Positions 698-37,853 of a DNA stretch of 50,477 bases are shown one piece after another. The stretch lies in the IMG/VR virus record IMGVR_UViG_2695420874_000004. One strand, given 5' to 3'. Position 1 is the stretch's first letter. The number at the start of each line of letters is the position of its first letter. The translations under genes and the position numbers were made by a program. The notes beneath the pieces were generated by a model. The model ran no database searches, was not told the DNA's origin, and saw only the letters and a list, made by a program, of their open reading frames with translations. The DNA is from a virus (Duplodnaviria > Heunggongvirae > Uroviricota > Caudoviricetes).

Positions 698-1060
698 GGG
701 GCTGATTCTGGATTCGACGGGATTTGCGAAACCCAAGGTGCATGCCGAGGGGCGGTTGGCCTCGTAAAAAGCCGCAAAAAATAGTCGCAAACGACGAAAA
801 CTACGCTTTAGCAGCTTAATAACCTGCTTAGAGCCCTCTCTCCCTAGCCTCCGCTCTTAGGACGGGGATCAAGAGAGGTCAAACCCAAAAGAGATCGCGT
901 GGAAGCCCTGCCTGGGGTTGAAGCGTTAAAACTTAATCAGGCTAGTTTGTTAGTGGCGTGTCCGTCCGCAGCTGGCAAGCGAATGTAAAGACTGACTAAG
1001 CATGTAGTACCGAGGATGTAGGAATTTCGGACGCGGGTTCAACTCCCGCCAGCTCCACCA
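698..1060 (+). ncRNA. ssrA: tmRNA (transfer-messenger RNA, SsrA)
   Basis: Starts GGGGCTGATTCTGGATTCGACGGG and ends with a tRNA-like acceptor arm ...GGTTCAACTCCCGCCAGCTCCACCA; contains the tag reading frame GCAAACGACGAAAACTACGCTTTAGCAGCTTAA (ANDENYALAA*). 363 nt. Confidence 0.93.
1016..1060. repeat. attL core: 3' end of ssrA, repeated at 36413..36457
   Basis: 45-bp sequence ATGTAGGAATTTCGGACGCGGGTTCAACTCCCGCCAGCTCCACCA is present identically at 36413..36457. Confidence 0.75.
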
Positions 1061-1070
1061 AATAAATCAA

Positions 1071-1103
1071 GGGGTTACGTGAAAGCGTAGCCCCTTTTTC
1101 TTT
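1071..1103 (+). terminator. Putative rho-independent terminator downstream of ssrA
   Basis: Stem GGGGTTACG / CGTAGCCCC (one G-U pair) followed by TTTTTCTTT, directly after the tmRNA 3' end, in prophage-derived DNA. Confidence 0.5.
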
Positions 1104-1183
1104 GGTAGTGGCGGCAAAATGGCGACAGACTTTTGCGTCCATCTTGCCTGTCGCCATCTTGAAATCATGCAAAGAGGTTTCAC

Positions 1184-1666
1184 ATGGAAGAACTTCACTT
1201 TGTTTACATCAATGCAAATGGTCGTATCGGTGTTCACTCAATACAGAGCATCAGTTATAGCGAAAATCATATACAGGGCATTTGTAAGAACACCGATCGA
1301 ATAAAAACCTTCCGAAAAGACCGCATTCTTAAACAGTACGATTCACCAGAACAAGCCATTCAGGAATGCGCGTCATTCCTCCCCGAAAACTACTCACATC
1401 TCACTAAGCAGTCTGGTCCGAAAAAAAATACATTCGATGTGTGCTTCACCGGATTTAAGAAAGCAGATAAAGAAAGATTAGTTGATAAGGCGAATGAACA
1501 AGGATTAACGGTAAGAACCTCTGTAACCCAAAGCCTTCAGATGCTCTGTTGCGGTTACAATGCAGGCCCATCAAAAGTATCGGCAGCCAGGATGAAAGGC
1601 ACAATCATCATAGATGAGCCTGGCTTTATACATTTTCTTGAAACGGGTGAGATCCCAGATGAATAA
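1184..1666 (+). CDS. Cargo protein with WYL-like N-terminal region and BRCT-like C-terminal domain
   Basis: ORF with AGAGG Shine-Dalgarno-like sequence upstream; N-terminal ...GRIGVHSIQSIS...DRIKTFRKDRI resembles the WYL signature (R-x-F-R-x-D-R-I); C-terminal TFDVCFTGF...GLTVRTSVTQ...GYNAGPSKVSAARMKGTIIIDEPGFIHFL follows the BRCT pattern of LigA. Sits between attL and ogr where P2 has no gene. Confidence 0.5.
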   Translation: MEELHFVYINANGRIGVHSIQSISYSENHIQGICKNTDRIKTFRKDRILKQYDSPEQAIQECASFLPENYSHLTKQSGPKKNTFDVCFTGFKKADKERLVDKANEQGLTVRTSVTQSLQMLCCGYNAGPSKVSAARMKGTIIIDEPGFIHFLETGEIPDE

Positions 1667-1694
1667 AAACCTGCCGTAGCAGGTTCTCTTTCTC
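1660..1694. terminator. Putative bidirectional terminator between the WYL/BRCT gene and ogr
   Basis: Hairpin AACCTGC-CGTA-GCAGGTT flanked by an A-run on one side and a T-rich run on the other; lies between two convergent stop codons. Confidence 0.45.
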
Positions 1695-1908
1695 AAAAAT
1701 TCATATGCCCCTGACCACCTGGCAATGGATGTGGAGGGGCTGTAGCAATCAATGCAGGTGCCACAATAAACCGGACCACTGTTTCATGGGTAACAAAAGT
1801 GCTCCCGCAGTTAATATTTTGGCACTGGCAGTAACGCTCTTTGGTGCTTTCTGTTACTTGAAAACTGCTCCTTGTGTGCGCCGCATGACCACACTTCGGA
1901 CAATTCAT
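1693..1908 (-). CDS. ogr: Ogr-like zinc-finger late-gene transcription activator
   Basis: MNCPKCGHAAHTRSS...CQCQNINCGSTF has the Cys4 arrangement and strong similarity to P2 Ogr; start trimmed to the second of two adjacent Met codons (the one aligning with the P2 Ogr N-terminus). Confidence 0.8.
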   Translation of the reverse strand: MNCPKCGHAAHTRSSFQVTESTKERYCQCQNINCGSTFVTHETVVRFIVAPALIATAPPHPLPGGQGHMNF

Positions 1909-1979
1909 CATATCCAGATCCCTACCTTTGCTATCAGAATCATTGTAATGATACACAAAATATCAATATTGAGAACACT

Positions 1980-3080
1980 TTATTCCATTTCAAGATCACC
2001 AATCTTCACTTCGAGTTCAATACTGGTTGTAAAACCGTTATCCGGGCTGACGGTATGTGTCAGAGTCGTAATGGTCCATTCCGCATCATCTATCGGCTGT
2101 TTAAAGCCACTGACTTTCACTGGCATTTCCGTGTAGAGATCTGCCCGACCTTCCGCCAGTTGTAGCGAGAATGACGCAACGCCGCGTTGCAGGCGTTCCC
2201 ACTGCATTTTCGCTGCCCGTTCAGCGTTGCTCCGGTTGGCATAAGTGCGATTAAGTACCAGCACGTTTTCATCCGTACCCACCAGGTAATCGCCCTGCTT
2301 CGCTTCCGGCTCTTTCTTCTGCTTTGCGGTCCTGCGCTTACGCTTCACCGTGGTGCTTTCTTTCTTCGCGGGTTCGCGGGTATGCAACCAACTGGCAATT
2401 ACGCCCGTATAGGCTCCGCGATCTGCCAGGGTAAAGCGGTGACTGTCGCCGTCCTTGCGTGTGATAGTGATCACCGGCAGAGGTTTACCGCTGGCGCTTT
2501 TGCCCTGTCCCTGCCGGATGAATAACAGATTGCCATTTTTCACCGACGCAATAGCACCGTACTGGCGCGCCAGCCGCATCAGAAAACTGCCGTCACTCTC
2601 ATTGGTCTGGTCTATATGTTCCACGGGCTTATCCGACAGGTCTTTACCCAGTGCCATCTTCAGCTTGTGCCGCGCGGCTATTTCCTTCACCACTTCCCCG
2701 ACGGTGGTCTTGTGCCACGACTTTTCACGACGGGTATTCAGCGTTTCCCGAAAATCAGCACTTCGCGCCCGGATAGTCAGGCGGTCCGGTGCGCCAATGT
2801 GTTCAATCTCGTCCACCGTGAATGCCCCTTTAGGGAAAAGCGGCTGCCCCTTCCAGCCCAGCGCCAGCGTAATGACCGCACCACGGCGCGGCAGCACGAT
2901 TTTTCCGTCGGCATCGTCCAGCTCCAGATCAAGCTGGTCCGCTTCAAAGCCCCGATTGTCCGTCAGAGTCAAACTCATCAGGCGGTTATCCAGCACAGTG
3001 GTGATATCCCTGCCCTCAATACTGATGCTGAATTCGGGAGTTTTGTTGCCTTTGTTAAGCAGTTCAGAGCTGAAATTCAC
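1980..3080 (-). CDS. D: P2 gpD-like tail protein
   Basis: 366-aa ORF at the position and with the character of P2 gpD, following U and T. Confidence 0.88.
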   Translation of the reverse strand: MNFSSELLNKGNKTPEFSISIEGRDITTVLDNRLMSLTLTDNRGFEADQLDLELDDADGKIVLPRRGAVITLALGWKGQPLFPKGAFTVDEIEHIGAPDRLTIRARSADFRETLNTRREKSWHKTTVGEVVKEIAARHKLKMALGKDLSDKPVEHIDQTNESDGSFLMRLARQYGAIASVKNGNLLFIRQGQGKSASGKPLPVITITRKDGDSHRFTLADRGAYTGVIASWLHTREPAKKESTTVKRKRRTAKQKKEPEAKQGDYLVGTDENVLVLNRTYANRSNAERAAKMQWERLQRGVASFSLQLAEGRADLYTEMPVKVSGFKQPIDDAEWTITTLTHTVSPDNGFTTSIELEVKIGDLEME

Positions 3081-3562
3081 GACAGCAGCCCTCCCACCGT
3101 TTTACTGATATCACTTAAGGCAGATGTTGCCGTGTCCTGCAGATTATTCAGTTGCGTACTGAGATCACCGAACATATCGGACAGGGATTCATCCACCCGT
3201 TTGAGCGACAGGGTGAACTCAATCCGACGCGGCATACCGTCGCGGAAAAACTCCGTTTTAGTCAGATTCAGTCCCTCAATCACATACATGCCGTAAATCG
3301 TGCCGCTGCCTTCAATCAGGGGCCATGCTTTTCCCTGTTCTGCCATCTGCTCCAGAGCCAGCAACGACAGCCTGCCGCCCGTTATCTCCGGCATAAGAAC
3401 ACCAGAAAGCGTCAGCATGTCGTTGTCCGGTCCCAGAAACTGCGTGGACGGACGACGGTTTACCCGGCTGTTTGCCGCATGTCGCCAGCTGCGTTGATAC
3501 TGCAGTTCCTGATACGGAACGGTGCGCAGCATAAACACGTACAATCCCAGCACCATCATCAT
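3077..3562 (-). CDS. U: P2 gpU-like tail protein
   Basis: 161 aa, recognised as gpU-like; overlaps D and T ends as in P2. Confidence 0.88.
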   Translation of the reverse strand: MMMVLGLYVFMLRTVPYQELQYQRSWRHAANSRVNRRPSTQFLGPDNDMLTLSGVLMPEITGGRLSLLALEQMAEQGKAWPLIEGSGTIYGMYVIEGLNLTKTEFFRDGMPRRIEFTLSLKRVDESLSDMFGDLSTQLNNLQDTATSALSDISKTVGGLLS

Positions 3563-6500
3563 GCGTCGTATCCCCCCTGATCGCTGTAGTTACTCCTGGC
3601 TTTTGCCTTCAGCCTGCGTTCACGTTCATCAAGCTGGCGTGCCACCTCCCGCGCAATATCCTGCGCACTTTGTCCTGGCTGCGTCTGAATGATGATCTGC
3701 GTCGGTGCCTCAATCCGGTGAACGGGCGGCACAGTGGCTGCACGACTCACCATCGCTTCGCCGCCTTTCGCGGGAAGTGCCAAAGGATGCAACGGTGGAA
3801 GCTCTGCAGGCGCGGCAGCAACGCCCATCATTCCGGCAACAACGGCAGCCAGTGCAGCTGTATTTCTCCGGCTGGTCACATTTGCCGGGCCGTTAACAAT
3901 TTCCGGCCCGTTTTCACCGACGATGCCAAACTGCCCGCGCGGGATATAGCCGCCGCTGTCATACATCCCCGCAAAGCCATATCCCCATGACGGAAAACCA
4001 CCCGGTGGCATCATTACTTTACCGTCTGCATTCACCGTCGCAGGTTGCTGACGCGTCACTCTTTCCGGCAGTTTCGCCTTTGCAGCCTCTTTACTGACAA
4101 TGCCGAGTTTCTCCAGCAACCAGGAAACGCCGGATTTCAGGGAGTCCAGCGGATGCATTACCATATTCAGCCCTTCCGCCAGTGCCTCCCCGAATCGTCG
4201 CCCCATTGCCGCTGCGCTCTGCAGTTCGGCAGAGGTCGACTTAACGGGCGTCAGCAGATCAGTAAACCAGCCCCACAACGCCTGCACTTTGTCGCCAATC
4301 CACTGAAACACAGGCTTAAGTGGTTCGAATGCTGCACTGATGGGACCTGCCGCCGCTTTGAATCCTTCCACCACACCAGCGAGAAATGCGGTGATGGGTT
4401 GCCAGTATTTCCAGACAACCAGCGCCACGCCCGCCAGTGCAGTAACCACAAGACCTATCGGACTGAGCAGAGCACCTAACAGACCAGATATGGCATACAG
4501 GGCAACGCGCAGCATCGCCAGCGGACCAGATGCAAGCACACGAAGCACCGCGCCTGCGGCAGCCAGTCCACCGCGCAGTACCGCCAGAGGATTCATAAAC
4601 ATCACAGCAACAGCACGTAAACCGGATAATCCGGACCGCAATAGTGCAACCGGCGCACCTGCTACAGTTTTCAGGACATTTCCCGTCAGTGATGCCGTAC
4701 GGCGCAAAGACGACAACGGCGCAGTAAGTAAACCCGCTGCGTTACCCGATGAAGCAAGCCCGCGTCGCAGCAGTATCAGTGGTGCGCCAGCCAGCCAGGA
4801 CAACGCGCTGCTGGTTCGAGTTACTGCTGCCGTAACGGAAGGTAACGTTTTGATACCCAGCACAGAGAATCCCAGACGGATCACTGCCAGCGGCCCCAGC
4901 ACTGCAGCCAGCGCCACCGCTAAGGTGCCGAGGCCGACAGTAACCGCAGCCACAACAGCCGCTGCTTTCATCAGTGCGCCTGTCAGTTCCGGGTTAGCTT
5001 CCACCCAGCGGCGCAACGCCCCCGTGATGCTTTTCACCGTGTACAGAATATCCATCAGCGGCTGGCGCAGCGTTTCGCCCAGGCTGCTGAAGGTGTTCTG
5101 CGCTCCGGTTTTGACCAGCAACCACTGAGCAGAAAGTGAGTCTTTGTTGATGTCGGATTCTTTCTGCATGGAACCGAGCGCATCATTGCCCGCTGTCAGT
5201 TTTAGCTGACGCTGCAGTTCCGGAAGGTTGTTTGCCAGTTTCGCCGCGTCATCACCAAACTCTTTACCAAACAACATGGTCATGGCAGACAGACGCTTGT
5301 CCTGCGGCAGTGCGTTCACCTTCTCCAGCACGCGCTGGATGGTTCCCATCGCATCCTTCGTCATCTGCTTTTCAATCACTTCAGGATTGAGTTTCAGCAG
5401 ATTCATCCCTTCAAAGAAACTCTTGCTTTGCATGGTGGCAATGGACAATTCACGCACCATCGCGTTTGCTGCACTGGCTGCAACCTCTGGCGCAGCGCCC
5501 AGTGTCAGGAAGGTGGAACCCAGCGCCGCCGCTTTACGATAATCCAGACGATCAGCCACACCGCCCAGGCGTTGCATGACATCAATGATGTCTGCACCTT
5601 TCGACATGGCGTTATCATCCAGATAGTTCAGCGCATCACCGAGCTGTTCAATATTGCGGGTAGGGATTTTGTAGAGCTGGGCGATTTTCCCCAGACTTTC
5701 TGACAGTTCATCCGCTGGCAGCTCAAAGGCTGTTGCCGCCTTTGCTGCCGTACTGGCGAAGGCCAGCAGGTCACGTTTCTGGTCTTCCCAGCTGTCGTCA
5801 GGGTTTGCGACGTTCATGCGCGCACCACCTTCAACCAGTGCAGCGAAATCCACCGCACCGTTTTCCATCGGCAACTGTTCGCTGGCAGCCTTGATGGCAT
5901 CCTGCATTTCATAAAAACGTGCAGTGCGGTTGCCATTATCGTCACGCAGACCATTGACCTGCTTTGCCACACCTTTCATGGCATCTTCCATGCTGGTATA
6001 GCTTTTTACTGCCGCCATCACTGGTGCGCCCATTGCCAGCCCTGCAGCCGTGGTGGTGGCTCCGGCACCTGCAATCCGATCCCTTACTTCAAGACGCCTG
6101 GCGTAAGCCCCCCGGGCGGCGTGCATTTTTCGCTGTTGCTCCCCGACACGTCGTAACCTCGCTTCCTGCTCAGAAAGCTGCCTGTTATAACGCATCGTTT
6201 CACGGGTAATGCGGGCCGTCGCACTGGCACCATCATTAGCTGAAATACCAGCACGATAAAGTTCTGCACGCACAAGCGCCGTCTGCTGCTGCAGCTTTTT
6301 CTGGCGTTCTTCCAGGCGCTGAACAGCCAGCCGTTGACGGCCCAGAGCAACAACCTGACGTTGCGAAGGCGGCCCCATCGCTCCCAGTTCCTGACTGAGC
6401 AAATTTGCACGCTGGCAGGCATAGCTCAGCCTGTCGCCTAATTTCTGATTTTCTGCCTGCAGCTTTCGGAAGCTGTCCAGACTGCTCCCGGCCTGATCAA

Positions 6501-6636
6501 GCTGCTTTATTGAATCGCGGGATTTTTTGACAGCAGCAGCCAGTTCTCTTGAACTGGCCTGCGCAGATCGAAATGGGCGGGTGAGCTTGTCAACCGCATT
6601 AAGAATGACCTGCAGACGCAGGTTATTGTCACTCAT
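3559..6636 (-). CDS. T: Tail tape measure protein (gpT-like)
   Basis: About 1000-aa Ala/Gly-rich protein with coiled-coil N-terminus and hydrophobic central region, between E and U; start set to the ATG at 6634..6636 (MSDNNLR...) rather than the upstream GTG. Confidence 0.88.
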   Translation of the reverse strand: MSDNNLRLQVILNAVDKLTRPFRSAQASSRELAAAVKKSRDSIKQLDQAGSSLDSFRKLQAENQKLGDRLSYACQRANLLSQELGAMGPPSQRQVVALGRQRLAVQRLEERQKKLQQQTALVRAELYRAGISANDGASATARITRETMRYNRQLSEQEARLRRVGEQQRKMHAARGAYARRLEVRDRIAGAGATTTAAGLAMGAPVMAAVKSYTSMEDAMKGVAKQVNGLRDDNGNRTARFYEMQDAIKAASEQLPMENGAVDFAALVEGGARMNVANPDDSWEDQKRDLLAFASTAAKAATAFELPADELSESLGKIAQLYKIPTRNIEQLGDALNYLDDNAMSKGADIIDVMQRLGGVADRLDYRKAAALGSTFLTLGAAPEVAASAANAMVRELSIATMQSKSFFEGMNLLKLNPEVIEKQMTKDAMGTIQRVLEKVNALPQDKRLSAMTMLFGKEFGDDAAKLANNLPELQRQLKLTAGNDALGSMQKESDINKDSLSAQWLLVKTGAQNTFSSLGETLRQPLMDILYTVKSITGALRRWVEANPELTGALMKAAAVVAAVTVGLGTLAVALAAVLGPLAVIRLGFSVLGIKTLPSVTAAVTRTSSALSWLAGAPLILLRRGLASSGNAAGLLTAPLSSLRRTASLTGNVLKTVAGAPVALLRSGLSGLRAVAVMFMNPLAVLRGGLAAAGAVLRVLASGPLAMLRVALYAISGLLGALLSPIGLVVTALAGVALVVWKYWQPITAFLAGVVEGFKAAAGPISAAFEPLKPVFQWIGDKVQALWGWFTDLLTPVKSTSAELQSAAAMGRRFGEALAEGLNMVMHPLDSLKSGVSWLLEKLGIVSKEAAKAKLPERVTRQQPATVNADGKVMMPPGGFPSWGYGFAGMYDSGGYIPRGQFGIVGENGPEIVNGPANVTSRRNTAALAAVVAGMMGVAAAPAELPPLHPLALPAKGGEAMVSRAATVPPVHRIEAPTQIIIQTQPGQSAQDIAREVARQLDERERRLKAKARSNYSDQGGYDA

Positions 6637-7065
6637 GGCTGGCCCCACTTCTCTGAATCGCTTTATACCGCCATTCCAGCACTTCGGTCAGCGGCATAAC
6701 GTCAGTAACGGATGGCGGCCAGTGAAAGATGGTGGCGATATCAGCCACCAGATCGTCAACCGTCAGGCTGTCGGTAAACCGGCAAGCACCGACTTCTTCA
6801 ACAAAAAAGTGACAACCTCAACCGACATGGCAGTGAGATCTGCCGGGTCCATCTCTGCAATTTCCTGTGCAGTCAGTGCCGGACTGGAGATGCGGGGGAT
6901 CACGGTCATCATCGCGTTCACATCCATATCCATAATGGCCTGCAGGCGTGTGCCGCGCAGCGCACCGGACTGCGGTTTACGCAGCACAATTTCGGTGACT
7001 TCTGTTTTACCGCGCATGATGGGGGTATCCAGTTGAATGGTCTTTTCAGTCTGCTTATCGCTCAT
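6629..7065 (-). CDS. E': gpE+E' -1 programmed-frameshift product (tail assembly chaperone, long form)
   Basis: Manual translation: a -1 shift at TTTTTTG (plus-strand 6802..6808) opens a frame that runs to a TGA at 6629..6631, overlapping the T start; product about 145 aa, matching the known P2 E/E' arrangement. Confidence 0.6.
6763..7065 (-). CDS. E: Tail assembly chaperone gpE
   Basis: 100-aa ORF upstream of T; contains T_TTT_TTG slippery heptamer near its 3' end. Confidence 0.85.
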   Translation of the reverse strand: MSDKQTEKTIQLDTPIMRGKTEVTEIVLRKPQSGALRGTRLQAIMDMDVNAMMTVIPRISSPALTAQEIAEMDPADLTAMSVEVVTFLLKKSVLAGLPTA

Positions 7066-7119
7066 TTTGTTGTCCTGTAAATTGGGTTCTGGCGCGGAAT
7101 CCCGTGCCGTTCAGATACA

Positions 7120-7635
7120 TCAGAGGCCGAGGGCGTTGCGGTGCGCTTCCATCAGGTCCACACCGTTCACAATTTCCACCATGTTGATAAGGTCCACTTC
7201 ATAGAGCACCTCACCATTGATGGTCAGCTTCGCGTAGCTGTTGGTACTGGTCACTTTGGTGGTGTTGCTTTCGCCCGTCTTCCACTCGCCGGAATCCACT
7301 TCTTTGTGACGTCCACGCACCACAAGCTCCACGGCCTGCACTTCCCCGGTATCATCACGCTGGATAGAGCCGGTAAAGCGCAACTGGATGCCATCCACCG
7401 TGGCTTTGCCCATCTGTTTAAACAGCAGCAGTTCAGTACCACCAATGGAAAATTCTGTGTCCAGAGCACTGTCATCAAGCCCCAGATCCACATCCACTGC
7501 ACCCGGCATTCCGCCGCCGCGATACTTCTCATATTTGCGGGTGAATTTCGGCAGCGTCAGAGACTCTACGATCCCCTGCCAGTTGTTCCCGTCGTTAAAC
7601 AGGTTCAGATGTTTTAATTTGCGTGGTAAAGCCAT
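7120..7635 (-). CDS. FII: Tail tube protein (gpFII-like)
   Basis: 171-aa ORF recognised as P2 FII-like, directly downstream of the sheath gene. Confidence 0.9.
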   Translation of the reverse strand: MALPRKLKHLNLFNDGNNWQGIVESLTLPKFTRKYEKYRGGGMPGAVDVDLGLDDSALDTEFSIGGTELLLFKQMGKATVDGIQLRFTGSIQRDDTGEVQAVELVVRGRHKEVDSGEWKTGESNTTKVTSTNSYAKLTINGEVLYEVDLINMVEIVNGVDLMEAHRNALGL

Positions 7636-7644
7636 GTTGTCCCC

Positions 7645-8817
7645 TTACGCGCTGACCTGGCTGGCAAAATTCACCAGGTACTGATCGGTGATGCGCTGAC
7701 GCAGCATCAGATTTTCAAGTGGCGGCACTGGCGTGTAGTCATAGTCGATGGTGAGTTTTCCGGCTTTCAGCGTGTCTTTGTCGTTCACCGACTCGTCCAG
7801 CCAGCAATCACCACCAATGAGATACCCCTGACTGACCAGGCTGCGCATTTTGGCGCGGATACCTTCGATAATGTCGCGGGCCAGCGACGGGTTCAGCGGT
7901 TTGTCCACCGCCCACATATGCGCTTCTGCCATCGTGTCCATCAGTACCTGCGCCGTGCGGGTGTAGTTTTCGAAGGCAAAGAGCGGGTCATCACTCAGGC
8001 AGCGGGAACCCCAGAAGCGGAAACCGTCTTTGCGGATAAGCGTGGTGACGTCGTTCTGGTTAAGCAGTCCCGCATCGGTTGCCGGGTCCTGCAGATCCCA
8101 GAACACATCTGCAGAAATTCCGGTGACACCGTTCACGCCCACGTTGGACAGGCTTTTGTGCCACCCGGTCTGCTCATCAATTTTGGCGCGCAGACCAAGC
8201 GCACGGGCGGTGGCATATGCCGTTGCTTCGGCATTCAGCACCGTGTCCCAGCCAGTAAAGTCAGGCCAGATCAGCATTCCTTCGCGCTGGCTGAAGTTTT
8301 CACGGTAAGTGATCGCCTCCTGTACCGTCTTGCAGCCATATGCTGACAGGTAGGCAAACCCACGCAGGCTTTGCGCCACACTCAGCAACTCAGTAGCAAC
8401 GGCTTTGTTATCATGACCTGGCACGCCGAGAATGCGCGGTTTAACGCCGAGCTGTGTCTGAGCAGATAACAGGGCTTTCATGCCTGTTTTTTTTCCTTCA
8501 GCGGTCACTGCACCGATGATATTGGTCGTGGTTTCTTCTTCCGTTTCACCCTGCGGCACACGCACAACAACGGTCACGGGTTTTGCCTGGTCAGCGATGG
8601 CGTCCAGCGAACGGGCCAGCGTGCCGGACTCACCCGCTTTACCGCTGGCAGTCAGCACATCAGTGATCAGTACGGGTTTATTAAGAGGAAACATTTTTGC
8701 ATCGGCATCATCGCCCGTGCAGACCATGCCCACGATGGCTGTGCTCACCGTGGTAATGGATCGGGTGCCTTCGTTGACTTCAACAACGCGCACCCCGTGG
8801 TGGTAATCCTGAGCCAT
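7645..8817 (-). CDS. FI: Contractile tail sheath protein (gpFI-like)
   Basis: 390-aa ORF recognised as P2 FI-like sheath protein. Confidence 0.92.
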
Positions 8818-8893
8818 AGTGGCGAACCTCCTGGTTGGATTAGGCTTCGCCCTATGTTGAAGTGATTGTGCCTGACAAACAGCTAAGCGCAGT

Positions 8894-8911
8894 TGTACCG
8901 TTATTCACACA
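8894..8911 (-). promoter_or_regulatory. Ogr-type late promoter dyad (TGT-N12-ACA) upstream of the FI operon
   Basis: TGTACCGTTATTCACACA about 85 bp upstream of the FI start codon; nearly the same sequence recurs in the O/P intergenic region. Confidence 0.45.
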
Positions 8912-8959
8912 AAATGACGGTATTTGTCTGCTTTCAGGGATAATCAAAATAAAGCTGAT

Positions 8960-9526
8960 TCAGGGAGATTCATTGCTCTTATTTGCCGGAAATTTTCGAT
9001 AAATGGTAGAAACGCCTACATCAAAAATCAGTGCAATACGCTGTCTTGATTCTCCGGCCTCGAGTAAACGCCCAATCTGTGCCCACTGTTCGCTGGTCAA
9101 CTTAGGACGGCGTCCACCTACTCTGCCTTTAACACGAGCTGCAGCCAGCCCTGCCCTGGTACGTTCAACTATCAGTTCGCGTTCCATTTCAGCCAGGGCA
9201 CCCATGACATGAAAAAAGAAACGGCCCATTGGGGTACTGGTATCAATACTGTCAGTCAGGCTTCGGAAATTCACGCCACGCTGGCGCAACTCTTCTATCA
9301 GCGTAACAAGATGCCGCATACTGCGCCCCAACCTGTCCAGCTTCCAGACAACCAGCGTGTCTCCTGCCGATAGTGTCCTGAGCAGTTTTTTCAGCCCCGG
9401 TCTGTCGGACTTAGTGCCACTGATTTTGTCCTCAAAAATCCGCTCACATCCCGCGCAGTTCAGTGCATTACGTTGCAAATCGGTGTTCTGGTCATTTGTT
9501 GACACGCGTACATAGCCAATAAGCAT
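8960..9526 (-). CDS. Site-specific DNA invertase, Gin/Cin/Pin/Hin family serine recombinase
   Basis: MLIGYVRVSTNDQNTDLQRNAL...LVVWKLDRLGRSMRHL...GRFFFHVMGALAEMEREL... is near-identical in pattern to Gin/Cin; start trimmed to the Met aligning with Gin. Confidence 0.9.
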   Translation of the reverse strand: MLIGYVRVSTNDQNTDLQRNALNCAGCERIFEDKISGTKSDRPGLKKLLRTLSAGDTLVVWKLDRLGRSMRHLVTLIEELRQRGVNFRSLTDSIDTSTPMGRFFFHVMGALAEMERELIVERTRAGLAAARVKGRVGGRRPKLTSEQWAQIGRLLEAGESRQRIALIFDVGVSTIYRKFPANKSNESP

Positions 9527-9581
9527 GATCATCCCCCTGAATAAAAACCGGAGATGATGCCAGTTAGCCGTAATCTCTGCA

Positions 9582-9607
9582 TTTTCTTAAACGTTGGTTT
9601 GGGAGAA
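9582..9607. repeat. Invertase crossover site (gix/hix-like), left
   Basis: TTTTCTTAAACG TT GGTTTGGGAGAA: 26-bp site with two 12-bp half-sites; its right half is the reverse complement of the left half of the site at 11424..11449. Confidence 0.6.
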
Positions 9608-9943: not shown

Positions 9944-9944
9944 T

Positions 9945-14975: not shown

Positions 14976-15004
14976 AAAGAGAAACAATTTCTAAGGTATT
15001 TAAG

Positions 15005-27354: not shown

Positions 27355-27558
27355 TGCCCGCTTTATGTAGTGGTTTTCATGCACCTGCATGATCTACGCA
27401 AAAGCCCGCCAGTTCTGGCGGGCCTTAGCAAAAACGATCCTCAAACGATCATGCGATCTCATGCGGCATAGACATGCACTACAGAGCTAACGCCTCGCAA
27501 GGGCTCGTTGTTCAACCTTGCTGACGCCAGAAGCAAGTTCAGACGCCAGCAACGTTTC

Positions 27559-27792: not shown

Positions 27793-27803
27793 AAAAAGTC
27801 ACC

Positions 27804-27992: not shown

Positions 27993-28145
27993 CTTTCCTC
28001 CTATGACACCACAAGAAATACTGTATACATAACCACTGTTTATATTTACAGTATATAATAATCTTACTGATGTAAAACGTTTTTTTACGTTCATCAGCCT
28101 GATATGCCTTGTATTATTAAGAGCACGAATTGTTAACCCGCGTAA

Positions 28146-30587: not shown

Positions 30588-31414
30588 TCCACGCCACGCG
30601 AAGGATCAAATCCTACCCAGCAGCGCGGCCCGGAAACAGCAATGATTTCTGTTGCAGATTTACTCTCACCAGCTGCCACGCCGATGCTGCGTTTTGCCTT
30701 GATGTAGTGGTGAGTAAAATTGCGATACAGCGAACGGATCAGGGATGTGTCACTGTTAGAAATAATGACCGGATATCCTTCTGATGACCGATGTTCAAGA
30801 ACAGATGCCAGGTGATACTGGTCATCTTCAGTGAAACCATCAGTGTGATAGCCTGAAAACGTACCGTCATAAGGCGGATCGCAATACACCACATCCCCCG
30901 CGTGCAACATCGCCAGCGTTTCATCGAAGCTGGCGCAGATAAACGTTGCCCGCTGGGCTTTTACTGCAAATGTACGAATTTCTTTTTCAGGAAAATACGG
31001 ATTTTTATAATTACCGTAGGGAATGTTGAAATGCCCGCTCTTGTTATAGCGACATAAACCACGGTAACCGTGACGATTGAGATACAGGAAATATATCGCT
31101 TTCATGAAATCAGTAATTTCAGTTGAGTAATTAAACTCCTTCCTTATGTTGTAATAATCCATCTCCCTGTTTGCGTTCTCAAATAAAACTCTGGCGCGAG
31201 ATATAAACGATTCACAATCAGCGGCAACCTTTTTATAGAGGTTGATTAAATCAGGATTAATATCCGCAACCAGATAGCTGGGATAATCCGTCTCCATCAT
31301 CACAGCACAGGAACCCGCGAAAGGTTCAACCAGTCGCGGGCCAGCAGGAAGATGTTTTTTCAGTTCGGACATTATGGCAGTTTTATTTCCCGCCCATTTC
31401 AGGATGGTGCTCAT
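30557..31414 (-). CDS. DNA adenine methyltransferase (Dam family, orphan)
   Basis: LKWAGNK near the N-terminus and DPPY motif; start at ATG overlapping the upstream stop (ATGA). Confidence 0.85.
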
Positions 31415-31638
31415 ACAGCACCTCCGTTGTAATGTTTGCCTTTCAGCTCTGCGATTTCCTGACAGGTAATGCAAAGCTGCACACCCGGAATGGCACGGCG
31501 GCGTGCTGGCGGAATTGGCGCTTCACACTCAATGCAAAGCACGCGGGACACGCCCGGCGTTTTGGCACGGGCAGCACGGATATGGCGTTGGCGTTCTTCT
31601 TCAACGCGCTGCTGTACGAGATCCATTGCATCAGCCAT
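31411..31638 (-). CDS. TraR/DksA-family C4 zinc-finger protein
   Basis: CIECEAPIPPARRRAIPGVQLCITCQ: four-cysteine finger typical of the DksA/TraR family found in P2-like early regions. Confidence 0.7.
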   Translation of the reverse strand: MADAMDLVQQRVEEERQRHIRAARAKTPGVSRVLCIECEAPIPPARRRAIPGVQLCITCQEIAELKGKHYNGGAV

Positions 31639-31877
31639 TAGTGGATCTCCTGCGCTTCGTTCTGGATTGCTTCAGCAGTCACACGAAGCAGTTCTGCCGC
31701 TTCGACGTGGGTTAGCTGGCGGGATGTGATATGACACGCCAGGCTATCAAGGCGAGCTGCCATTGCTTCAGCCCTTGCCCGGCGTTCTTCCAGACGAGCC
31801 TCTGTCAGTAAAATATTTAGCCCTGCGTCATCCGGTCCGGTTTGGGTCGAGAGGGTTTCAATATTACGCATAATCAA
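31638..31877 (-). CDS. Hypothetical early-region protein
   Basis: 79-aa ORF on the same strand in the early operon. Confidence 0.5.
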   Translation of the reverse strand: MIMRNIETLSTQTGPDDAGLNILLTEARLEERRARAEAMAARLDSLACHITSRQLTHVEAAELLRVTAEAIQNEAQEIH

Positions 31878-31938
31878 TTCTCCTGAATTTAGATAAAGGG
31901 ATGCCCGGCGGGTTTACGCCATTAATTTCATTAGTTGG

Positions 31939-32280
31939 TTAATTCGGCATGGTTAGCCGTCTGGGAAATAAGCTCACCACTGCACGAAAATGATTCATTG
32001 CTTTAATCAACTCCCGCTTTTCGTCAGTGGTCAGCTCATTAATGCTGATGCTATGACGTTCAGCTGGAATTTTTGCCATAAAGAATATGGCAGCCAGTGC
32101 CCGTTTATTTTGTTCGCTATTAATATCGCGTAGATCACGCATATCTTTAATAAACCGCTCAAGCTCTGACTCAATATTCAGACCAAAAACTTTCGCCCTT
32201 AACTCCGCAATGTGATTAAGTCCATTCAGGCGTTCACCGGGGCCTAATGGAACAGTCGCCGCAGCGCCATTAATTGCCAT
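31939..32280 (-). CDS. Hypothetical early-region protein
   Basis: 113-aa ORF on the same strand in the early operon. Confidence 0.5.
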   Translation of the reverse strand: MAINGAAATVPLGPGERLNGLNHIAELRAKVFGLNIESELERFIKDMRDLRDINSEQNKRALAAIFFMAKIPAERHSISINELTTDEKRELIKAMNHFRAVVSLFPRRLTMPN

Positions 32281-32302
32281 AATTCATATTCCCAAAACGC
32301 AA

Positions 32303-32527
32303 CTATCGCTCTTTGTTCTTACGGTAACGCTCAAGAGGAGATATATTTTTTCGTATCATCTCTTTAACCTGCTCTCCCCGTAAAAACGTCCCATCCTTTA
32401 GCGTGAAAAAGTAACTGCCATCGCCCGACAACGACGGATAACAACAGAGCAAATCATCTTCAGATACTGAATAACTCTCCCCTCTGTAACGAAACTGATA
32501 AACCACTTCACTTTCCGCTGCATACAT
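32303..32527 (-). CDS. Hypothetical early-region protein
   Basis: 74-aa ORF; overlaps an alternative-frame ORF, so the call is tentative. Confidence 0.4.
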   Translation of the reverse strand: MYAAESEVVYQFRYRGESYSVSEDDLLCCYPSLSGDGSYFFTLKDGTFLRGEQVKEMIRKNISPLERYRKNKER

Positions 32528-32701
32528 TTTGACTTTCTCCGTTTCCCCGTGGTCAATTCAGACAGCAATTCATCTTGTGAACGGCACGGATGCCAGCGTT
32601 TACCATCCTCACCCATGATCCAGCCGTGACCGTAGTGCATTGCCGGACTTTGTTTTACCAGCAGCGATGCAAATGATGGTTCTTTCGTCAGCATAAGCAC
32701 C

Positions 32702-33211
32702 TCACAGCAATCCGAATGAAGCACCGAGGCCAGTTACGGTATCAACTGCACTTGCCATCGCAGGATTAGCCTGTAAACGGGCCTGCAATGAAACAGCAGC
32801 CAGCGCCATCAGTCGTGTAACAGAGTTAATGCTGCTGATCGCATCACGACGGCCTGCACTGGTTTTTACATCGCCAGAAACCGCACCAGCCGCGACACGC
32901 CCTATCTCTGCAGTTGCACTCATGACGTAATGCGGCAGTTTCTCTTTTGCCACCTCATTAATCGGAACACATGGCAGACAATGAATCTGTGCCAGAAAAC
33001 CATCTACCAGCGTTGAATCTTCAGTCAGATCGGTAAGTAGCCAGATATCTCGTGCAGTGAGCTGATGCGGTTGTTCCGGGTTCAGCTTGTTACGCAGCGT
33101 CTGGACGTTCATTCCCGCGAGTTCTGCTAGCTTCGCCATATTGTGACGTAGTGCAAAAGCTCTACAGGCTTCATCAAAATGCGGATGTTTGGAAATCTTG
33201 TAATCAAACAT
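32702..33211 (-). CDS. B: Replication protein gpB-like
   Basis: 169-aa ORF recognised as P2 B-like, downstream of the cox-like gene. Confidence 0.8.
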   Translation of the reverse strand: MFDYKISKHPHFDEACRAFALRHNMAKLAELAGMNVQTLRNKLNPEQPHQLTARDIWLLTDLTEDSTLVDGFLAQIHCLPCVPINEVAKEKLPHYVMSATAEIGRVAAGAVSGDVKTSAGRRDAISSINSVTRLMALAAVSLQARLQANPAMASAVDTVTGLGASFGLL

Positions 33212-33243
33212 GGTGCTCCCTTAGAAAGTTCCCATAATTGAAA

Positions 33244-33486
33244 TTACTTACCAACAATGACGCGGAAGTTAGAATGACCGAGGGATTCACGGACCTGATC
33301 AGTTTTGTACATTAGATAACGCAGGCTTACGCGGCCTTTGTTTTTTTCTTTCTTGACCATGTACTTAGCGAGTTGACCATGGTGAATTTTTTGGTAAACA
33401 GACCCGCGGGAAATCCCTTCCCATTCAGCGAATTCAGCAGGCGTAGCCATCTCTTTTGGTACACGAATTGAAATATCTGTGCTCAT
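33244..33486 (-). CDS. Cox/Apl-like excisionase and transcriptional regulator
   Basis: 80-aa protein transcribed divergently from the repressor gene, at the Cox/Apl position; assignment positional, sequence diverged. Confidence 0.55.
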   Translation of the reverse strand: MSTDISIRVPKEMATPAEFAEWEGISRGSVYQKIHHGQLAKYMVKKEKNKGRVSLRYLMYKTDQVRESLGHSNFRVIVGK

Positions 33487-33532
33487 AGTGCAGTATCTCT
33501 TGGTTTAAGCTCGTTTTATGATGTTTAACCCC

Positions 33533-33559
33533 AACTTCTAAACTCTCATATTAGAAGTT
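33533..33559. promoter_or_regulatory. Candidate operator: perfect 9-bp inverted repeat in the lysis-lysogeny switch region
   Basis: AACTTCTAA-N9-TTAGAAGTT between the divergent cox-like and CI-like genes. Confidence 0.4.
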
Positions 33560-33588
33560 AAATACAAAAATACGATCTCGTTATTGGA

Positions 33589-34239
33589 TTGTCAAATGGA
33601 GAGTTCATCTTGAAGATTAATACAGGTGCAAATACGGGAGGGAGAGAGACCATCAAAAGGCTGATGACAGCCTATGGTTTCAACACTCAGATAGCGTTGG
33701 TTGAACACCTCGAAGCATCAAAAAGCACCATGGCAAACAGGATGTTACGTGATAGCTTCCCTGCTGACTGGGTTATTCAATGTGCCCTTGAAACAGGTAT
33801 TTCTCTTCTTTGGCTGACAACGGGCCAAGGGGAAATGTATCCTCAAACAGAAGAAAAAAATAAGTTCAAAAACGAGAGTTCACCTACAGTTCGCCCCCTT
33901 TCAAAGATAGTTATCCCATCAGTAAGGCAGGCAACTATTGAGAACGGAACTCTCGAAGAGATGGGGGATGTTTTCCTTGATCAGACTTTGATACCCGGAA
34001 AAGCCGAATATTGTTTGTACGTCAAAGCTAACGACGGCAATTACATTGTTGATACATCAACAAAACAGCTTAGTAACGGAATTTGGCTCATAGACATCGA
34101 CGGTATGAAAAACATCGTCAAAATTGCGCGCATACCTGGAAACAAAATAGTAGTTAACCAAGATGACACGTCATTTGAATGTTCTGTAGATGATGTGGAA
34201 GTCGTAGGACGTGCAGTCAAAGTAATCAAGAACCTCTAA
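33589..34239 (+). CDS. CI-type immunity repressor (phage 186 CI-like)
   Basis: ...AYGFNTQIALVEHLEASKSTMANRM...CALETGISLLWLTTGQGE parallels the 186 CI N-terminal DNA-binding region as I recall it. Confidence 0.8.
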   Translation: MSNGEFILKINTGANTGGRETIKRLMTAYGFNTQIALVEHLEASKSTMANRMLRDSFPADWVIQCALETGISLLWLTTGQGEMYPQTEEKNKFKNESSPTVRPLSKIVIPSVRQATIENGTLEEMGDVFLDQTLIPGKAEYCLYVKANDGNYIVDTSTKQLSNGIWLIDIDGMKNIVKIARIPGNKIVVNQDDTSFECSVDDVEVVGRAVKVIKNL

Positions 34240-34242
34240 CTT

Positions 34243-35262
34243 ATGACCATAAGAAAACAGCCGAACGGAAAATGGTTGTGTGAGTGCTATCCCAATGGAC
34301 GCAATGGTAAGCGCGTGCGTAAGCAATTTGCTACCAAAGGCGAAGCTATTGCATTTGAAAGCTTCACAATGGAAGAAGTGAACAAAAAACCATGGCTGGG
34401 GGAAAAGGAAGATCGGCGACATTTATCAGAATTAATTGAGCTGTGGTATTCCCTGTATGGTCAAACACTCACAGACCCCAAGCGCCTCATGGCGAAACTT
34501 AGTATTATCTGTAATGGTCTAGGCGATCCCATCGCTTCAGAACTGACAGCCGGTGACTTTACGAAATACCGCGAAGCACGGTTAAAAGGTGAAGTACGAA
34601 ATGAAGATGGCACGCTTATGTCGCCCGTTAAGCCCCGCACGGTAAACCTTGAACAGCGCAATCTATCATCTGTTTTTGGTACACTGAAAAAGCTGGGCCA
34701 CTGGTCAGCCCCCAACCCGCTTGCCGGGCTGCCAACATTTAAAATTGCTGAGAGTGAATTGGCGTTCCTGACCCCGGAAGAAATTAAACGTCTGCTGGAT
34801 GCCTGTGCTGATTCTCAAAGCTCTAGTCTGCTGACGGTTGCAAAAATATGTCTGGCCACCGGCGCGAGATGGAGTGAAGCCGAAAACCTGCAGGGCCATC
34901 AATTATCAAAATACCGGATCACTTACACCAAAACTAAAGGCAAGAAAAACCGAACCGTACCGATATCTCAGGAGCTATATGAAGAACTCCCCAAAAACAG
35001 AGGGAAACTATTCACGCCCTGCAGAAAAGCTTTTGAGCGCGCAGTAAAACGAGCCGGTATAGACCTGCCTGAAGGCCAGTGCACACACGTGTTGCGCCAT
35101 ACATTCGCCAGTCACTTCATGATGAATGGCGGAAACATATTGGTACTACGCGATATTCTTGGTCACTCTGATATAAAAATGACGATGGTTTATGCTCATT
35201 TTTCGCCAGATCATTTAGAAGATGCTGTAACAAAAAATCCACTGGCTATGTTGGGATACTGA
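34243..35262 (+). CDS. int: Tyrosine integrase (P2/186 Int family)
   Basis: 339 aa with C-terminal HVLRHTFASHFMMNGG...LGHSDIKMTMVYAHF catalytic box (R...H-x-x-R...Y). Confidence 0.92.
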   Translation: MTIRKQPNGKWLCECYPNGRNGKRVRKQFATKGEAIAFESFTMEEVNKKPWLGEKEDRRHLSELIELWYSLYGQTLTDPKRLMAKLSIICNGLGDPIASELTAGDFTKYREARLKGEVRNEDGTLMSPVKPRTVNLEQRNLSSVFGTLKKLGHWSAPNPLAGLPTFKIAESELAFLTPEEIKRLLDACADSQSSSLLTVAKICLATGARWSEAENLQGHQLSKYRITYTKTKGKKNRTVPISQELYEELPKNRGKLFTPCRKAFERAVKRAGIDLPEGQCTHVLRHTFASHFMMNGGNILVLRDILGHSDIKMTMVYAHFSPDHLEDAVTKNPLAMLGY

Positions 35263-35264
35263 TA

Positions 35265-36296
35265 ATGGAAAAAAGCATTAGCACATTTATGTACCTATCC
35301 GTTTTATTAGGTTGTATATTCTTATTTATAAAATATCGACTTTATGTTCTCGATCATAGAAGCTTGTTCCAACAACCCTTGTTCTGGGCTGCAATAGGCC
35401 TACCTTTATTCACCAGCCTTTACTTTGGTTCTTTTGTCTGGATAGATAAAATACACTCTTTTAGTCTTACAAGTCACGGTTATGAGAGATTTTTAGATAT
35501 CTCGAAATTACCATTACTCATCCTTGCATCTGCAGTACCTTTAGTTTCAATAGTAAACAACCTACACAGAACCAAACAAACAGAAAAACAGATCTCAGAG
35601 GCAGAAAGGAAAAACAGGGTAGATTTATATTACAACCACATGAAATTTCATCTTGATTTATATAAAAAAATCGAAGGGAAAAGAATAGGCAGCTACTACC
35701 CGGTTCAGGAAGCTCAAGCTGAAGCAATCTACCAACATTTTATAAAACATCCACAAGAACTATATAGAAAAGCATACCCACAATCTACGCCTGATGATTC
35801 TCAACAATTAGATATTAATGAGCAATTTGTTATTGATTTACACAAATGTTGGGTAGAAATCAACGCAAGACTCAAGCAATTATCCGAGAGTGAAAATCAA
35901 ATACATCCTACAGAGGAACTTTGCACAACAAAGATGAGAATATTTGTAGGAGTTATGATTATTTATGAAAAAACTTGTAAACTGTTGTGTTTAGGTGGAT
36001 TTCATTATAAAAAGTCATTTGTAATAAATGATAGTTATAATAAATACCAAGTTTATTCACCATTTTATGATTTTGGCACTCTGTACGAATCACTGCAATC
36101 CTTAGAAGAGATAACCTACGCCTTCTTGGATACTTGCAGAAATGAAGTGGTAAACTTGTACTTCCCTATAGAAGATAAAATTTTGATATATGGTGAAGGG
36201 ATTCTAGAGAATTGGTTCAAGTATTCTCAGTTCTTGATCACTATAGCTTATCAACCCGCCAAGATGTCTCGCTTACCCCAGCTGAGACGCGATTGA
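35265..36296 (+). CDS. Hypothetical membrane-anchored cargo protein between int and attR
   Basis: 343-aa AT-rich ORF starting 2 bp after the int stop; two N-terminal hydrophobic helices (LSVLLGCIFLFI, LFWAAIGLPLFTSLYFGSFVW) and a large soluble C-terminal part. Confidence 0.65.
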   Translation: MEKSISTFMYLSVLLGCIFLFIKYRLYVLDHRSLFQQPLFWAAIGLPLFTSLYFGSFVWIDKIHSFSLTSHGYERFLDISKLPLLILASAVPLVSIVNNLHRTKQTEKQISEAERKNRVDLYYNHMKFHLDLYKKIEGKRIGSYYPVQEAQAEAIYQHFIKHPQELYRKAYPQSTPDDSQQLDINEQFVIDLHKCWVEINARLKQLSESENQIHPTEELCTTKMRIFVGVMIIYEKTCKLLCLGGFHYKKSFVINDSYNKYQVYSPFYDFGTLYESLQSLEEITYAFLDTCRNEVVNLYFPIEDKILIYGEGILENWFKYSQFLITIAYQPAKMSRLPQLRRD

Positions 36297-36412
36297 TGAT
36301 GGCGACATTTTGGCGGCAGAGCTTTAAAAACAGATAAAACTGTCAAACACCACATAACACTAACGTATTGTTTTTAAAAATAAATCATTATTTTTTCTGT
36401 AGTAAAAATGGT

Positions 36413-36457
36413 ATGTAGGAATTTCGGACGCGGGTTCAACTCCCGCCAGCTCCACCA
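36413..36457. repeat. attR of the P2-like prophage / attL of the downstream island: partial ssrA 3' end
   Basis: Exact 45-bp copy of 1016..1060. Confidence 0.75.
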
Positions 36458-36582
36458 ATTTTTGATATATTGAAGTTCAGTGAAGTCTATCAAGCCCGCA
36501 TGGAACCAGCCTTGCGGGCTTTTTTACGTCTATAGTAGTCTACCGAGAATTGCTAGAATCTACTCGTTATGGCACCCTTTTT

Positions 36583-36627
36583 GGGACCCAACACAAAGGG
36601 TCCAAAACATGAGGGTCCCAAACATGG
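36583..36627. repeat. Three tandem 15-bp imperfect repeats overlapping the island integrase start codon
   Basis: GGGACCCAACACAAA / GGGTCCAAAACATGA / GGGTCCCAAACATGG in direct succession; the third contains the int ATG. Confidence 0.4.
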
Positions 36628-37853
36628 CAAAAATCGCTAAGAAGCTCACTGACACTGAAATCAAAAGCACCAAACCTGCCGAGAAAGAGGTTAACCTTTT
36701 TGACGGCGATGGTTTGCTCCTGCGAATCGCCCCCTTAGCGAAGGGAGGAAAGAAAAATTGGTATTTCAGATATGCAGTGCCTGTGACCAAAAAGCGAACT
36801 AAGGTGAGCTTAGGAACCTATCCTCACCTTACACTTGCGAAGGCACGAGCTTTACGTGATGAGTACTTGTCGTTGCTTGCAAATGGTATAGACCCACAAG
36901 TTCATAACACCCACAAAGCCAATGCCCTTAAGGATGCAACGGAACATACATTTCAAGCAGTAGCCAAGAAGTGGCTTGATGAGAAAGTCAAAACGTCAGG
37001 CATCTCCCAGGATCATGCTAACGACATCTGGCGAAGCCTAGAGAGAAATATCTTTCCAACGTTGGGTGATACCCCCATTAAGGAGATTCGCCCTAAAATG
37101 CTTAAACAGCATTTAGACCCCATAGAAAAACGAGGTGTCCTTGAAACACTTCGCCGCGTCATATCCCGCCTGAATGAAATTTTCCGCTATGCAGCAACAG
37201 AAGAACTCATAGAATTCAATCCGGCTGACAACCTGGGGCAACGGTTCAGCAAGCCAAAAAAACAGAATATGCCAGCATTACCCCCTTCCGAACTCCCCCG
37301 CTTCCTGGTTGCTCTAAACAATGCTTCTATCCGTTTAGAAACAAGGCTACTGATTGAGTGGCAACTTCTCACATGGGTTCGCCCTGGTGAAGCTGTTCGC
37401 ACAAGATGGTCAGATATTGATATAGAAACCAGCATGTGGAACATCCCGGCGGAGTTTATGAAAATGAAGAAGCCTCACAAAGTTCCACTGAGCAAAGAAT
37501 CTTTGCGAGTCTTGGATTCAATGAAAGCCATCAGCGGGCATAGAGAGTGGGTTTTTCCCAGTATCAAAGCTCCACTCAATCACATGCATGAACAAACAGC
37601 TAATGCGGCTATAATCCGTATGGGCTTCGGAGGTGAGCTTGTAGCTCATGGTATGCGATCAATCGCTAGAACGGCGGCTGAGGAGTGTGGCAAGTTTAGA
37701 ACTGATGTCTTAGAAGCCGCCCTTGCCCACTCGAAAAAAGATGAAATAATTGCAGCCTACAATCGTGCAGAGTATCTCACAGAACGTGTGGTTCTCATGC
37801 AATGGTGGAGTGACTATGTTTCGTCTCAAAAATACAAAGTTATTGCCGCATAA
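36624..37853 (+). CDS. P4-type tyrosine integrase (CP4-57 IntA-like)
   Basis: N-terminal LTDTEIKSTKP...GDGLLLRIAP...WYFRY arm-binding region and blocks DIWRSLERNIFP, QKKNMPAL, AHGMRSIARTA, EAALAH, AYNRAEYL, MQWWSDYV shared with IntA as I recall it. Confidence 0.9.
   Translation: MAKIAKKLTDTEIKSTKPAEKEVNLFDGDGLLLRIAPLAKGGKKNWYFRYAVPVTKKRTKVSLGTYPHLTLAKARALRDEYLSLLANGIDPQVHNTHKANALKDATEHTFQAVAKKWLDEKVKTSGISQDHANDIWRSLERNIFPTLGDTPIKEIRPKMLKQHLDPIEKRGVLETLRRVISRLNEIFRYAATEELIEFNPADNLGQRFSKPKKQNMPALPPSELPRFLVALNNASIRLETRLLIEWQLLTWVRPGEAVRTRWSDIDIETSMWNIPAEFMKMKKPHKVPLSKESLRVLDSMKAISGHREWVFPSIKAPLNHMHEQTANAAIIRMGFGGELVAHGMRSIARTAAEECGKFRTDVLEAALAHSKKDEIIAAYNRAEYLTERVVLMQWWSDYVSSQKYKVIAA

Follow-up and report, generated by a model that had tools for sequence, protein, structure and literature searches.

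The insertion of phages Fels-2 and SopEΦ at ssrA, the gene for transfer-messenger RNA (tmRNA), and of the element CP4-57 at the same gene are textbook cases, and P2 and P4 are a known pair of helper phage and satellite. Islander finds the strongest enrichment of any target at the tmRNA gene, records damaged gene fragments as a class, and recognises tandem arrays at tRNA and tmRNA genes in which every member has its integrase and its gene fragment (PMC4383910); Williams 2003, 'Traffic at the tmRNA gene', is cited there. The insertion of SopEΦ and Fels-2 into ssrA is stated in PMC3448106 with reference to Pelludat et al. 2003, and CP4-57 of Escherichia coli K-12 is reported to excise (Wang et al. 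2009, as cited in PMC5148205). Here we analyze a stretch of 50,477 nucleotides from the IMG/VR virus record IMGVR_UViG_2695420874_000004, the whole of which we refer to as the window. From its sequence, the window very probably holds two independent integrative elements in tandem, a P2-family prophage and a mobilizable island with a P4-family integrase, stacked at the 3' end of an E. coli ssrA gene. The coordinates of the features discussed below are collected in Table 1.

The ssrA gene lies near the left end of the window, downstream of smpB (positions 1..483). It is recognized by ARAGORN and by Rfam family RF00023 (295.8 bits), encodes the tag ANDENYALAA, and is identical to K-12 ssrA at 363 of 363 nucleotides. 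An earlier note on this DNA had claimed that the 3' end of the gene is repeated exactly further downstream, and alignment confirms this with one correction: the repeat spans 46 bp rather than 45, consisting of the last 45 nucleotides of ssrA and one additional base (1016..1061 and 36413..36458). For a window of this size, the chance expectation for such a repeat is ~3e-19. No third ssrA-derived copy was found within the window using 15-, 20-, and 25-mers on both strands; the island ends beyond it. Separately, Rfam returns a second tmRNA match at 36281..36457 (52 bits against a gathering score of 47), in which only the 46-nucleotide 3' fragment truly aligns, and the Prokaryotic Genome Annotation Pipeline (PGAP) labels the equivalent segment of RefSeq genome NZ_CP148275 (L001 22282..22458) as ssrA. 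This 177-nucleotide "second ssrA" of Rfam and PGAP is an artefact of annotation and overlaps the last part of a cargo open reading frame (ORF).

The 35.35-kb interval between the two copies is a P2-family (Peduoviridae) prophage that is apparently complete. That a P2-like prophage fills this interval had been proposed from the sequence, and it is borne out by a full set of PHROG matches together with Pfam matches for a CI repressor and an integrase. Strong PHROG matches are seen for D, tape measure, sheath, tail fibre, baseplate J, capsid, terminase, portal, replication nickase A, and a Cox/Apl excisionase, with expectation (E) values of 1e-85 to 1e-290 for D, T, FI, H, J, N, P, Q, and A. The prophage integrase is 92% identical to Fels-2 Int over 339 amino acids and 94% identical to the integrase of phage Cartapus; in the phage collection, 28 records match it at 90-95% identity, and the next group follows at ~55%. 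The similarity to Fels-2 and SopEΦ extends to an identical core, arm motifs, and terminator, to a switch made up of a 186-type CI, CII, and Apl, and to P2-type late genes in the same order. Unlike Fels-2 and SopEΦ, the window prophage resides in E. coli and not in Salmonella, and at the nucleotide level its nearest matches are E. coli Peduoviridae prophage records (96% identity across 86% of the query). It further differs from Fels-2 in carrying a cargo ORF between int and the attachment site, where Fels-2 has none, and in the cargo at the other hotspots, here the candidate defence pair PDC-M01. The prophage integrase gene does not adjoin the second repeat copy, as the earlier note had supposed, but sits 1.15 kb from it; a 343-amino-acid cargo ORF (35265..36296) intervenes and abuts the copy.

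Phage genomes provide a picture of the attachment site from which this prophage would derive. When the right end of the prophage, the core, and the left end are joined in that order, the predicted phage attachment site (attP) is found as one contiguous piece in phage Cartapus, with 94% identity. The Fels-2 record annotates its attP, and there too the right end, core, and left end are contiguous. The 46-bp core is identical in the window prophage, Cartapus, and Fels-2, and both phages conserve the terminator and the candidate arm-type sites on either side of it. Phage 500465-1 (L004, NC_049342.1) was dropped as a source of attP evidence. Its record is a mis-delimited prophage and not a virion genome, and it holds the host genes smpB, ratA, bamE, recN, nadK, grpE, and ffh at 30338..39179; Cartapus and Fels-2 were therefore used instead.

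The second copy of the repeat is followed by a different element. A P4/CP4-57-type integrase gene had been placed about 165 bp after the copy, and we find its ATG at 36624, 166 bp after base 36458, in the same orientation as the ssrA fragment. The 409-amino-acid product contains Arm-DNA-bind_3 (PF13356), Phage_int_M (PF22022), and Phage_integrase (PF00589) domains and passes the NCBIfam PRK09692 cut-off (445 bits against 434). It is full length, and the conserved R, H-x-x-R, H, and Y positions can be read in its translation. A pairwise comparison of the island and prophage integrases gives no significant similarity (E = 0.018), and the two are "unrelated" in the sense of belonging to different tyrosine recombinase subfamilies, not to different enzyme classes. 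Beyond the integrase, the island has a GC (guanine plus cytosine) content of 30-37%, and Pfam identifies a large serine recombinase, two ParB/RepB proteins, a RelA/SpoT and NACHT pair, an ankyrin protein, and a MOB relaxase, at whose stop codon the window ends. The part of the island within the window has no AlpA-family gene; one is present in the copy of the island in strain MRE162 (PF05930, E = 1e-19).

The closest described relative of the island is CP4-57 of K-12. In both, the 3' end of ssrA is directly followed by a P4-family integrase gene that has the same orientation and the same domains and passes PRK09692. Relatives of the island also carry an AlpA-family gene and, at the distal end, a short, damaged ssrA remnant with the same backbone after it before ypjA. 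However, the island integrase is only 49% identical to K-12 IntA of CP4-57, the cargo is wholly different (serine recombinase, ParB-like pair, NACHT and RelA/SpoT, relaxase), and the remnant in relatives of the island has one or two more deletions than psaA, its K-12 counterpart. A P2-family phage beside an element with a P4-family integrase also resembles a P2 helper with its P4 satellite. This likeness is one of integrase family only, as the island occurs without the prophage in 1271 genomes, and the annotation of its full-length copy in MRE162 contains none of the P4 satellite core genes psu, delta, sid, and alpha primase. The lack of these genes in the annotated full-length copy, together with the presence of a relaxase, rules out the island as a P4 satellite.

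Each element can be found at ssrA without the other. In MRE162, the island directly follows an intact ssrA and there is no prophage; the BLAST alignment of this strain with the window begins at precisely 36413 and extends to 50477 at ~100% identity. In 2011C-3911, the same prophage integrase and the same 343-amino-acid cargo gene are followed by a 46-bp copy and then directly by the chromosomal backbone, TCATGATTGGACGG..., and a ypjA-type gene, so that this strain also reads as a pristine, island-free site. Strain 300709 carries both elements in tandem, with a complete right end. To place these arrangements in a wider context, junctions were counted in 5426 complete E. coli genomes, in which the 46-bp core alone occurs 5881 times. 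The junction of ssrA, core, and prophage left arm is present in 230 of these genomes, that of intact ssrA with the island left end in 1271, and that of prophage right arm, core, and island left end, which is the middle junction of the tandem, in 84. The contiguity of attP, the MRE162 junction, and the arrangement in 2011C-3911 all support the claim that a single repeat forms both the right end of the prophage and the left end of a second island. One genome shows a rearranged form of the locus: in FORC_081 (NZ_CP029057.1, ~4574763..4596732), the middle junction is unbroken, but the P4-type integrase stops short at the equivalent of window position ~37088 and the rest of the island is found upstream in inverted orientation, as if an inversion had broken the integrase gene.

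The distal repeat of the island lies outside the window and was located in relatives from the sequence that precedes ypjA, with the psaA annotation of K-12 for comparison. In these relatives, it is a damaged ssrA remnant of 12-13 nucleotides. The backbone that follows the right end of the island or prophage is shared, beginning TCATGATTGGACGG... and running toward ypjA. Immediately before this backbone, the pristine site of 2011C-3911 reads CGCCAGCTCCACCAA, the right end of K-12 CP4-57, annotated as the pseudo-ssrA psaA, reads CCGCCAGCCCACCA, and the island right end reads CGCCAGCCCCAA in 300709 and CGCCAGCCCCCAA in MRE162, where the backbone and ypjA follow and the remnant lies ~6.4 kb beyond the equivalent of the window end. 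At three loci (L002 35396..35408, L007 39008..39019, and L003 23473..23486), the remnants are 13, 12, and 14 nucleotides long, respectively, with single-base deletions in the C run, and this strain-to-strain variation looks like recurrent damage at the island attachment site. Scans of locus L001 with a 32-mer (up to 3 mismatches) and with 9-mer seeds returned only the middle copy or chance matches because so short and gapped a remnant escapes such searches, and a fixed-spacing pattern gave no match because the copies differ by insertions and deletions. In the source genome of the window, the island would be expected to end ~6.4 kb past the window in CGCCAGCCCC(C)AA or a similar remnant, with TCATGATTGGACGG... 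and ypjA coming next.

These remnants qualify two points of the earlier note. The ssrA-derived repeat that it sought at the right end of the island does exist in relatives, but it is short and damaged and is seen outside the source sequence. In addition, the identity block of the island in relatives is at most 15 nucleotides long, lies at the extreme 3' end of ssrA, and is nested within the 46-bp block of the prophage. The claim that two unrelated integrases use the same tmRNA core therefore stands as far as the two distinct integrases are concerned, while the sameness of the core is only partly borne out, the two cores being nested.

Taken together, we propose the following history for the locus. 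A ~20-kb mobilizable island, equipped with a P4-family integrase and a relaxase, would have been resident first beside ssrA; identical copies of it elsewhere also have an AlpA-type excisionase. The island integrase would have recombined within the last 15 or fewer nucleotides of ssrA, leaving a short and now damaged remnant at the far end. A Fels-2-type P2-like phage would then have integrated into the regenerated ssrA by recombination within the 46-bp block of its attP, which consists of the last 45 nucleotides of ssrA and one base, flanked by candidate arm-type sites and the phage's own terminator. Because this attP carries the 3' end of the gene along with a terminator, integration would have rebuilt a functional ssrA at the left attachment site of the prophage (attL) and supplied it with the phage-borne terminator, while the original 3' end, with the island attached, would have been pushed 35.35 kb downstream. 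As the old 3' end would have been carried away with the island, the displaced fragment at 36413..36458 would now serve both as the core of the right attachment site (attR) of the prophage and as the attL core of the island, keeping the island core together with the adjacent cluster of GGG[AT]CC[CA]A motifs at 36582..36620. Each element would thus keep a complete pair of sites and could in principle leave separately, giving products like MRE162 or 2011C-3911. Which element inserted first, where exactly the crossovers fell, which motifs are arm sites, and whether either element can excise today are inferred from sequence; the island-first order is favored by the perfect repeats of the prophage, the decayed repeat of the island, the predominance of island-only genomes, and the proximal position of the prophage.

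The arrangement agrees with the tandem arrays at tRNA and tmRNA genes described by Islander, in which an intact gene is followed by successive elements, each with its own integrase and a 3' fragment of the gene in the same orientation. For the prophage, these are its integrase and the 46-bp fragment; for the island, they are the integrase in the window and the fragment in relatives, including 300709. There is no difference in kind between the window and these arrays, and only the pairing of elements and their cargo genes are particular to it.

Several points weigh against this reading. The order of arrival would follow from parsimony. Since the two long copies are identical, the sequence cannot tell which of them derives from the phage or at which point of the 46 bp the strands were exchanged. 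The distal repeat of the island is degenerate (12-13 nucleotides) and is seen in relatives only, which makes the ability of the island to excise uncertain. Finally, a search for a P2/186 cohesive-end consensus, allowing up to 2 mismatches, gave no match, a result that is uninformative on packaging competence.

The alternative that survives best, although we consider it doubtful, is that the prophage alone is live and that the island, its right site decayed, has become a fixed remnant passed on by vertical inheritance, in which case the middle repeat would be the prophage attR and nothing else. The state of the distal repeat is in keeping with this, as it is down to 12-13 nucleotides in relatives, carries deletions, and varies between strains; furthermore, the island sits at the same locus in ~23% of genomes, and insertion sequences and deletions are found among its relatives. 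However, a full-length integrase with readable catalytic positions and a score above the NCBIfam cut-off is not what this explanation would lead one to expect, nor is the retention of the AlpA-family gene and relaxase in relatives, and K-12 CP4-57 is reported to excise despite a similarly imperfect psaA repeat (PMC5148205). This explanation also concerns present-day mobility only, and it is compatible with a historical tandem integration.

It is also conceivable, but improbable, that the phage arrived first and that the island came second, entering the displaced 46-bp fragment at the prophage attR and using this gene fragment, instead of the intact ssrA, as its bacterial attachment site (attB). 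Under this order, the prophage-only genome of 2011C-3911, with a pristine fragment beside the backbone, would be a suitable recipient, and the displaced fragment does hold the whole identity block of 15 or fewer nucleotides used by the P4-type integrase. The intact ssrA would nonetheless compete as a target, and the genome counts point the other way, with island-only genomes 15 times commoner than tandem ones (1271 versus 84). Moreover, the old-looking damage to the distal repeat is common to island-only and tandem strains, whereas the repeats of the prophage are perfect.

Less probable again is a set of more speculative proposals, to which we give very little weight: that the stacking is functional, through co-induction of the island with the P2-like prophage or excision of a 56-kb composite via the outer ssrA copies; that the island entered the displaced fragment, with attR fragments acting as secondary landing pads; or that the 343-amino-acid ORF is an undescribed anti-phage gene. 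A single composite element, in which the P4-type integrase and the genes downstream of it belong to the prophage or the reverse, is hardly credible: the two elements are adjacent in 84 genomes, and P2 and P4 do pair as helper and satellite, but each element is found alone at ssrA, the phage genomes close their attP circle without island DNA, and the island has a relaxase in place of any annotated P4 satellite core gene. The assembly artefact feared in the earlier note, or a duplication artefact of the same 46 bp, can be dismissed with the same near certainty, as the middle junction recurs in 84 and the left junction in 230 independent complete genomes and the flanks match phage attP exactly.

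The tandem array also carries cargo in both of its members. In the prophage, the 343-amino-acid ORF beside the second repeat copy has predicted N-terminal hydrophobic segments, a GC content of 37%, and no match in Pfam, PADLOC, or NCBIfam. The interval between int and the attachment site is described as a minor defence hotspot of P2-like phages (PMC13586616), and in related ssrA prophages it is occupied by a dCTP deaminase, GapS1, an HNH protein, thyX, or a RES-domain protein. The ORF is a candidate for an undescribed anti-phage gene. The PDC-M01 cassette consists of two genes of low GC content (31-32%) between the portal gene Q and the replication gene A, and its A protein is a PtuA-like AAA ATPase. 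A further ORF of 304 amino acids (14957..15871, +; 34% GC) lies on the opposite strand within the late genes, between the baseplate and tail-completion genes; its sole match is phrog_4373 (unknown function), and it is probably cargo at a known tail-region hotspot.

Two other regions of the prophage deserve mention. At 8960..10382, a Cin/Gin-type DNA invertase (190 amino acids; Resolvase and HTH_7 domains) adjoins alternative tail-fibre and tail-fibre-assembly ORFs on both strands, which suggests an invertible host-range segment, as in Fels-2. Between attL and an ogr-like gene, an ORF of 160 amino acids (1184..1666, +) has a weak BRCT-like C-terminus and matches phrog_2561, labelled DNA ligase; its labels, which are DNA ligase or exonuclease in other records, look unreliable.

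In the island, the tyrosine integrase gene is directly followed by a serine recombinase of 520 amino acids and then by two overlapping ParB/RepB-like genes (38130..41471, +). Further along is an operon-like pair (42524..45543, -) encoding a 704-amino-acid protein with a NACHT-associated inactive restriction endonuclease domain (NACHT in RefSeq) and a 301-amino-acid RelA/SpoT-domain protein. The NACHT protein has no PADLOC match, and the two genes may act together in defence, with an effector resembling an alarmone synthetase.

Table 1. Features of the ssrA locus in the window, with strand and the evidence for each assignment.
Feature	Position	Strand	Evidence
ssrA, intact tmRNA gene	698..1060	+	ARAGORN, Rfam RF00023, K-12 identity; 3' part would have been rebuilt by prophage attP in the favored reading
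Prophage attL core (last 45 nucleotides of ssrA plus one base)	1016..1061	+	Exact repeat with 36413..36458; identical core in Cartapus and Fels-2 attP
P2-family prophage with Fels-2-type integration module	1062..36412		PHROG matches; similarity to Peduoviridae records; limits from the repeat and the MRE162 empty site
Phage-borne intrinsic terminator, now ending ssrA	1069..1105	+	12-pair stem then T tract; same sequence after the core in Cartapus and Fels-2
Candidate arm-type Int sites, P' side, three GGCG[AG]CA	1110..1155		Motif scan; conserved in Cartapus and Fels-2; putative Int binding
PADLOC candidate defence pair PDC-M01 B and A, portal-to-replication hotspot	24753..27266	-	PADLOC E = 9e-32 (B), 2e-55 (A)
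Cox/Apl-type excisionase and repressor	33244..33486	-	phrog_6912, phrog_575
186-type CI repressor	33589..34239	+	Pfam Phage_CI_repr, Phage_CI_C
Prophage tyrosine integrase, Fels-2/SopEΦ type, ssrA-specific	34243..35262	+	Pfam Int_N, Phage_integrase
343-amino-acid cargo ORF between int and attR	35265..36296	+	phrog_17460 (unknown function) its sole family match
Candidate arm-type Int sites, P side, GGCGACA and GGCGGCA	36301..36318	+	Motif scan; conserved in Cartapus and Fels-2; putative function
Displaced ssrA 3' fragment, prophage attR core and island left (attL) core	36413..36458	+	Exact repeat; MRE162 ssrA-island junction alignment begins exactly here
Left 14 kb of a ~20.4-kb low-GC mobilizable island, running past the window	36459..50477		Pfam; ~100% identity to the MRE162 island
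Island-borne intrinsic terminator, ends ssrA in island-only strains	36494..36525	+	Hairpin GCCCGC...GCGGGC then T6; identical after intact ssrA in MRE162
Candidate arm-type sites for island Int, GGG[AT]CC[CA]A	36582..36620		4 of 5 whole-window occurrences cluster here; putative function
P4-family (CP4-57 IntA-like) tyrosine integrase of the island	36624..37853	+	Pfam, NCBIfam, IntA identity

The stacking of two elements at this gene is real but ordinary, and because the phenomenon and both pairings of integrase and site are already published, the window raises no new question. Its value for annotation lies in the precise limits it gives for the prophage (1062..36412), in exposing a "second ssrA" as a fragment, and in marking the slots that hold defence cargo. 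Beyond this, it offers a clean worked example of how an incoming element brings with it the 3' end of the gene and its own terminator, with ssrA staying intact and older elements being pushed downstream.

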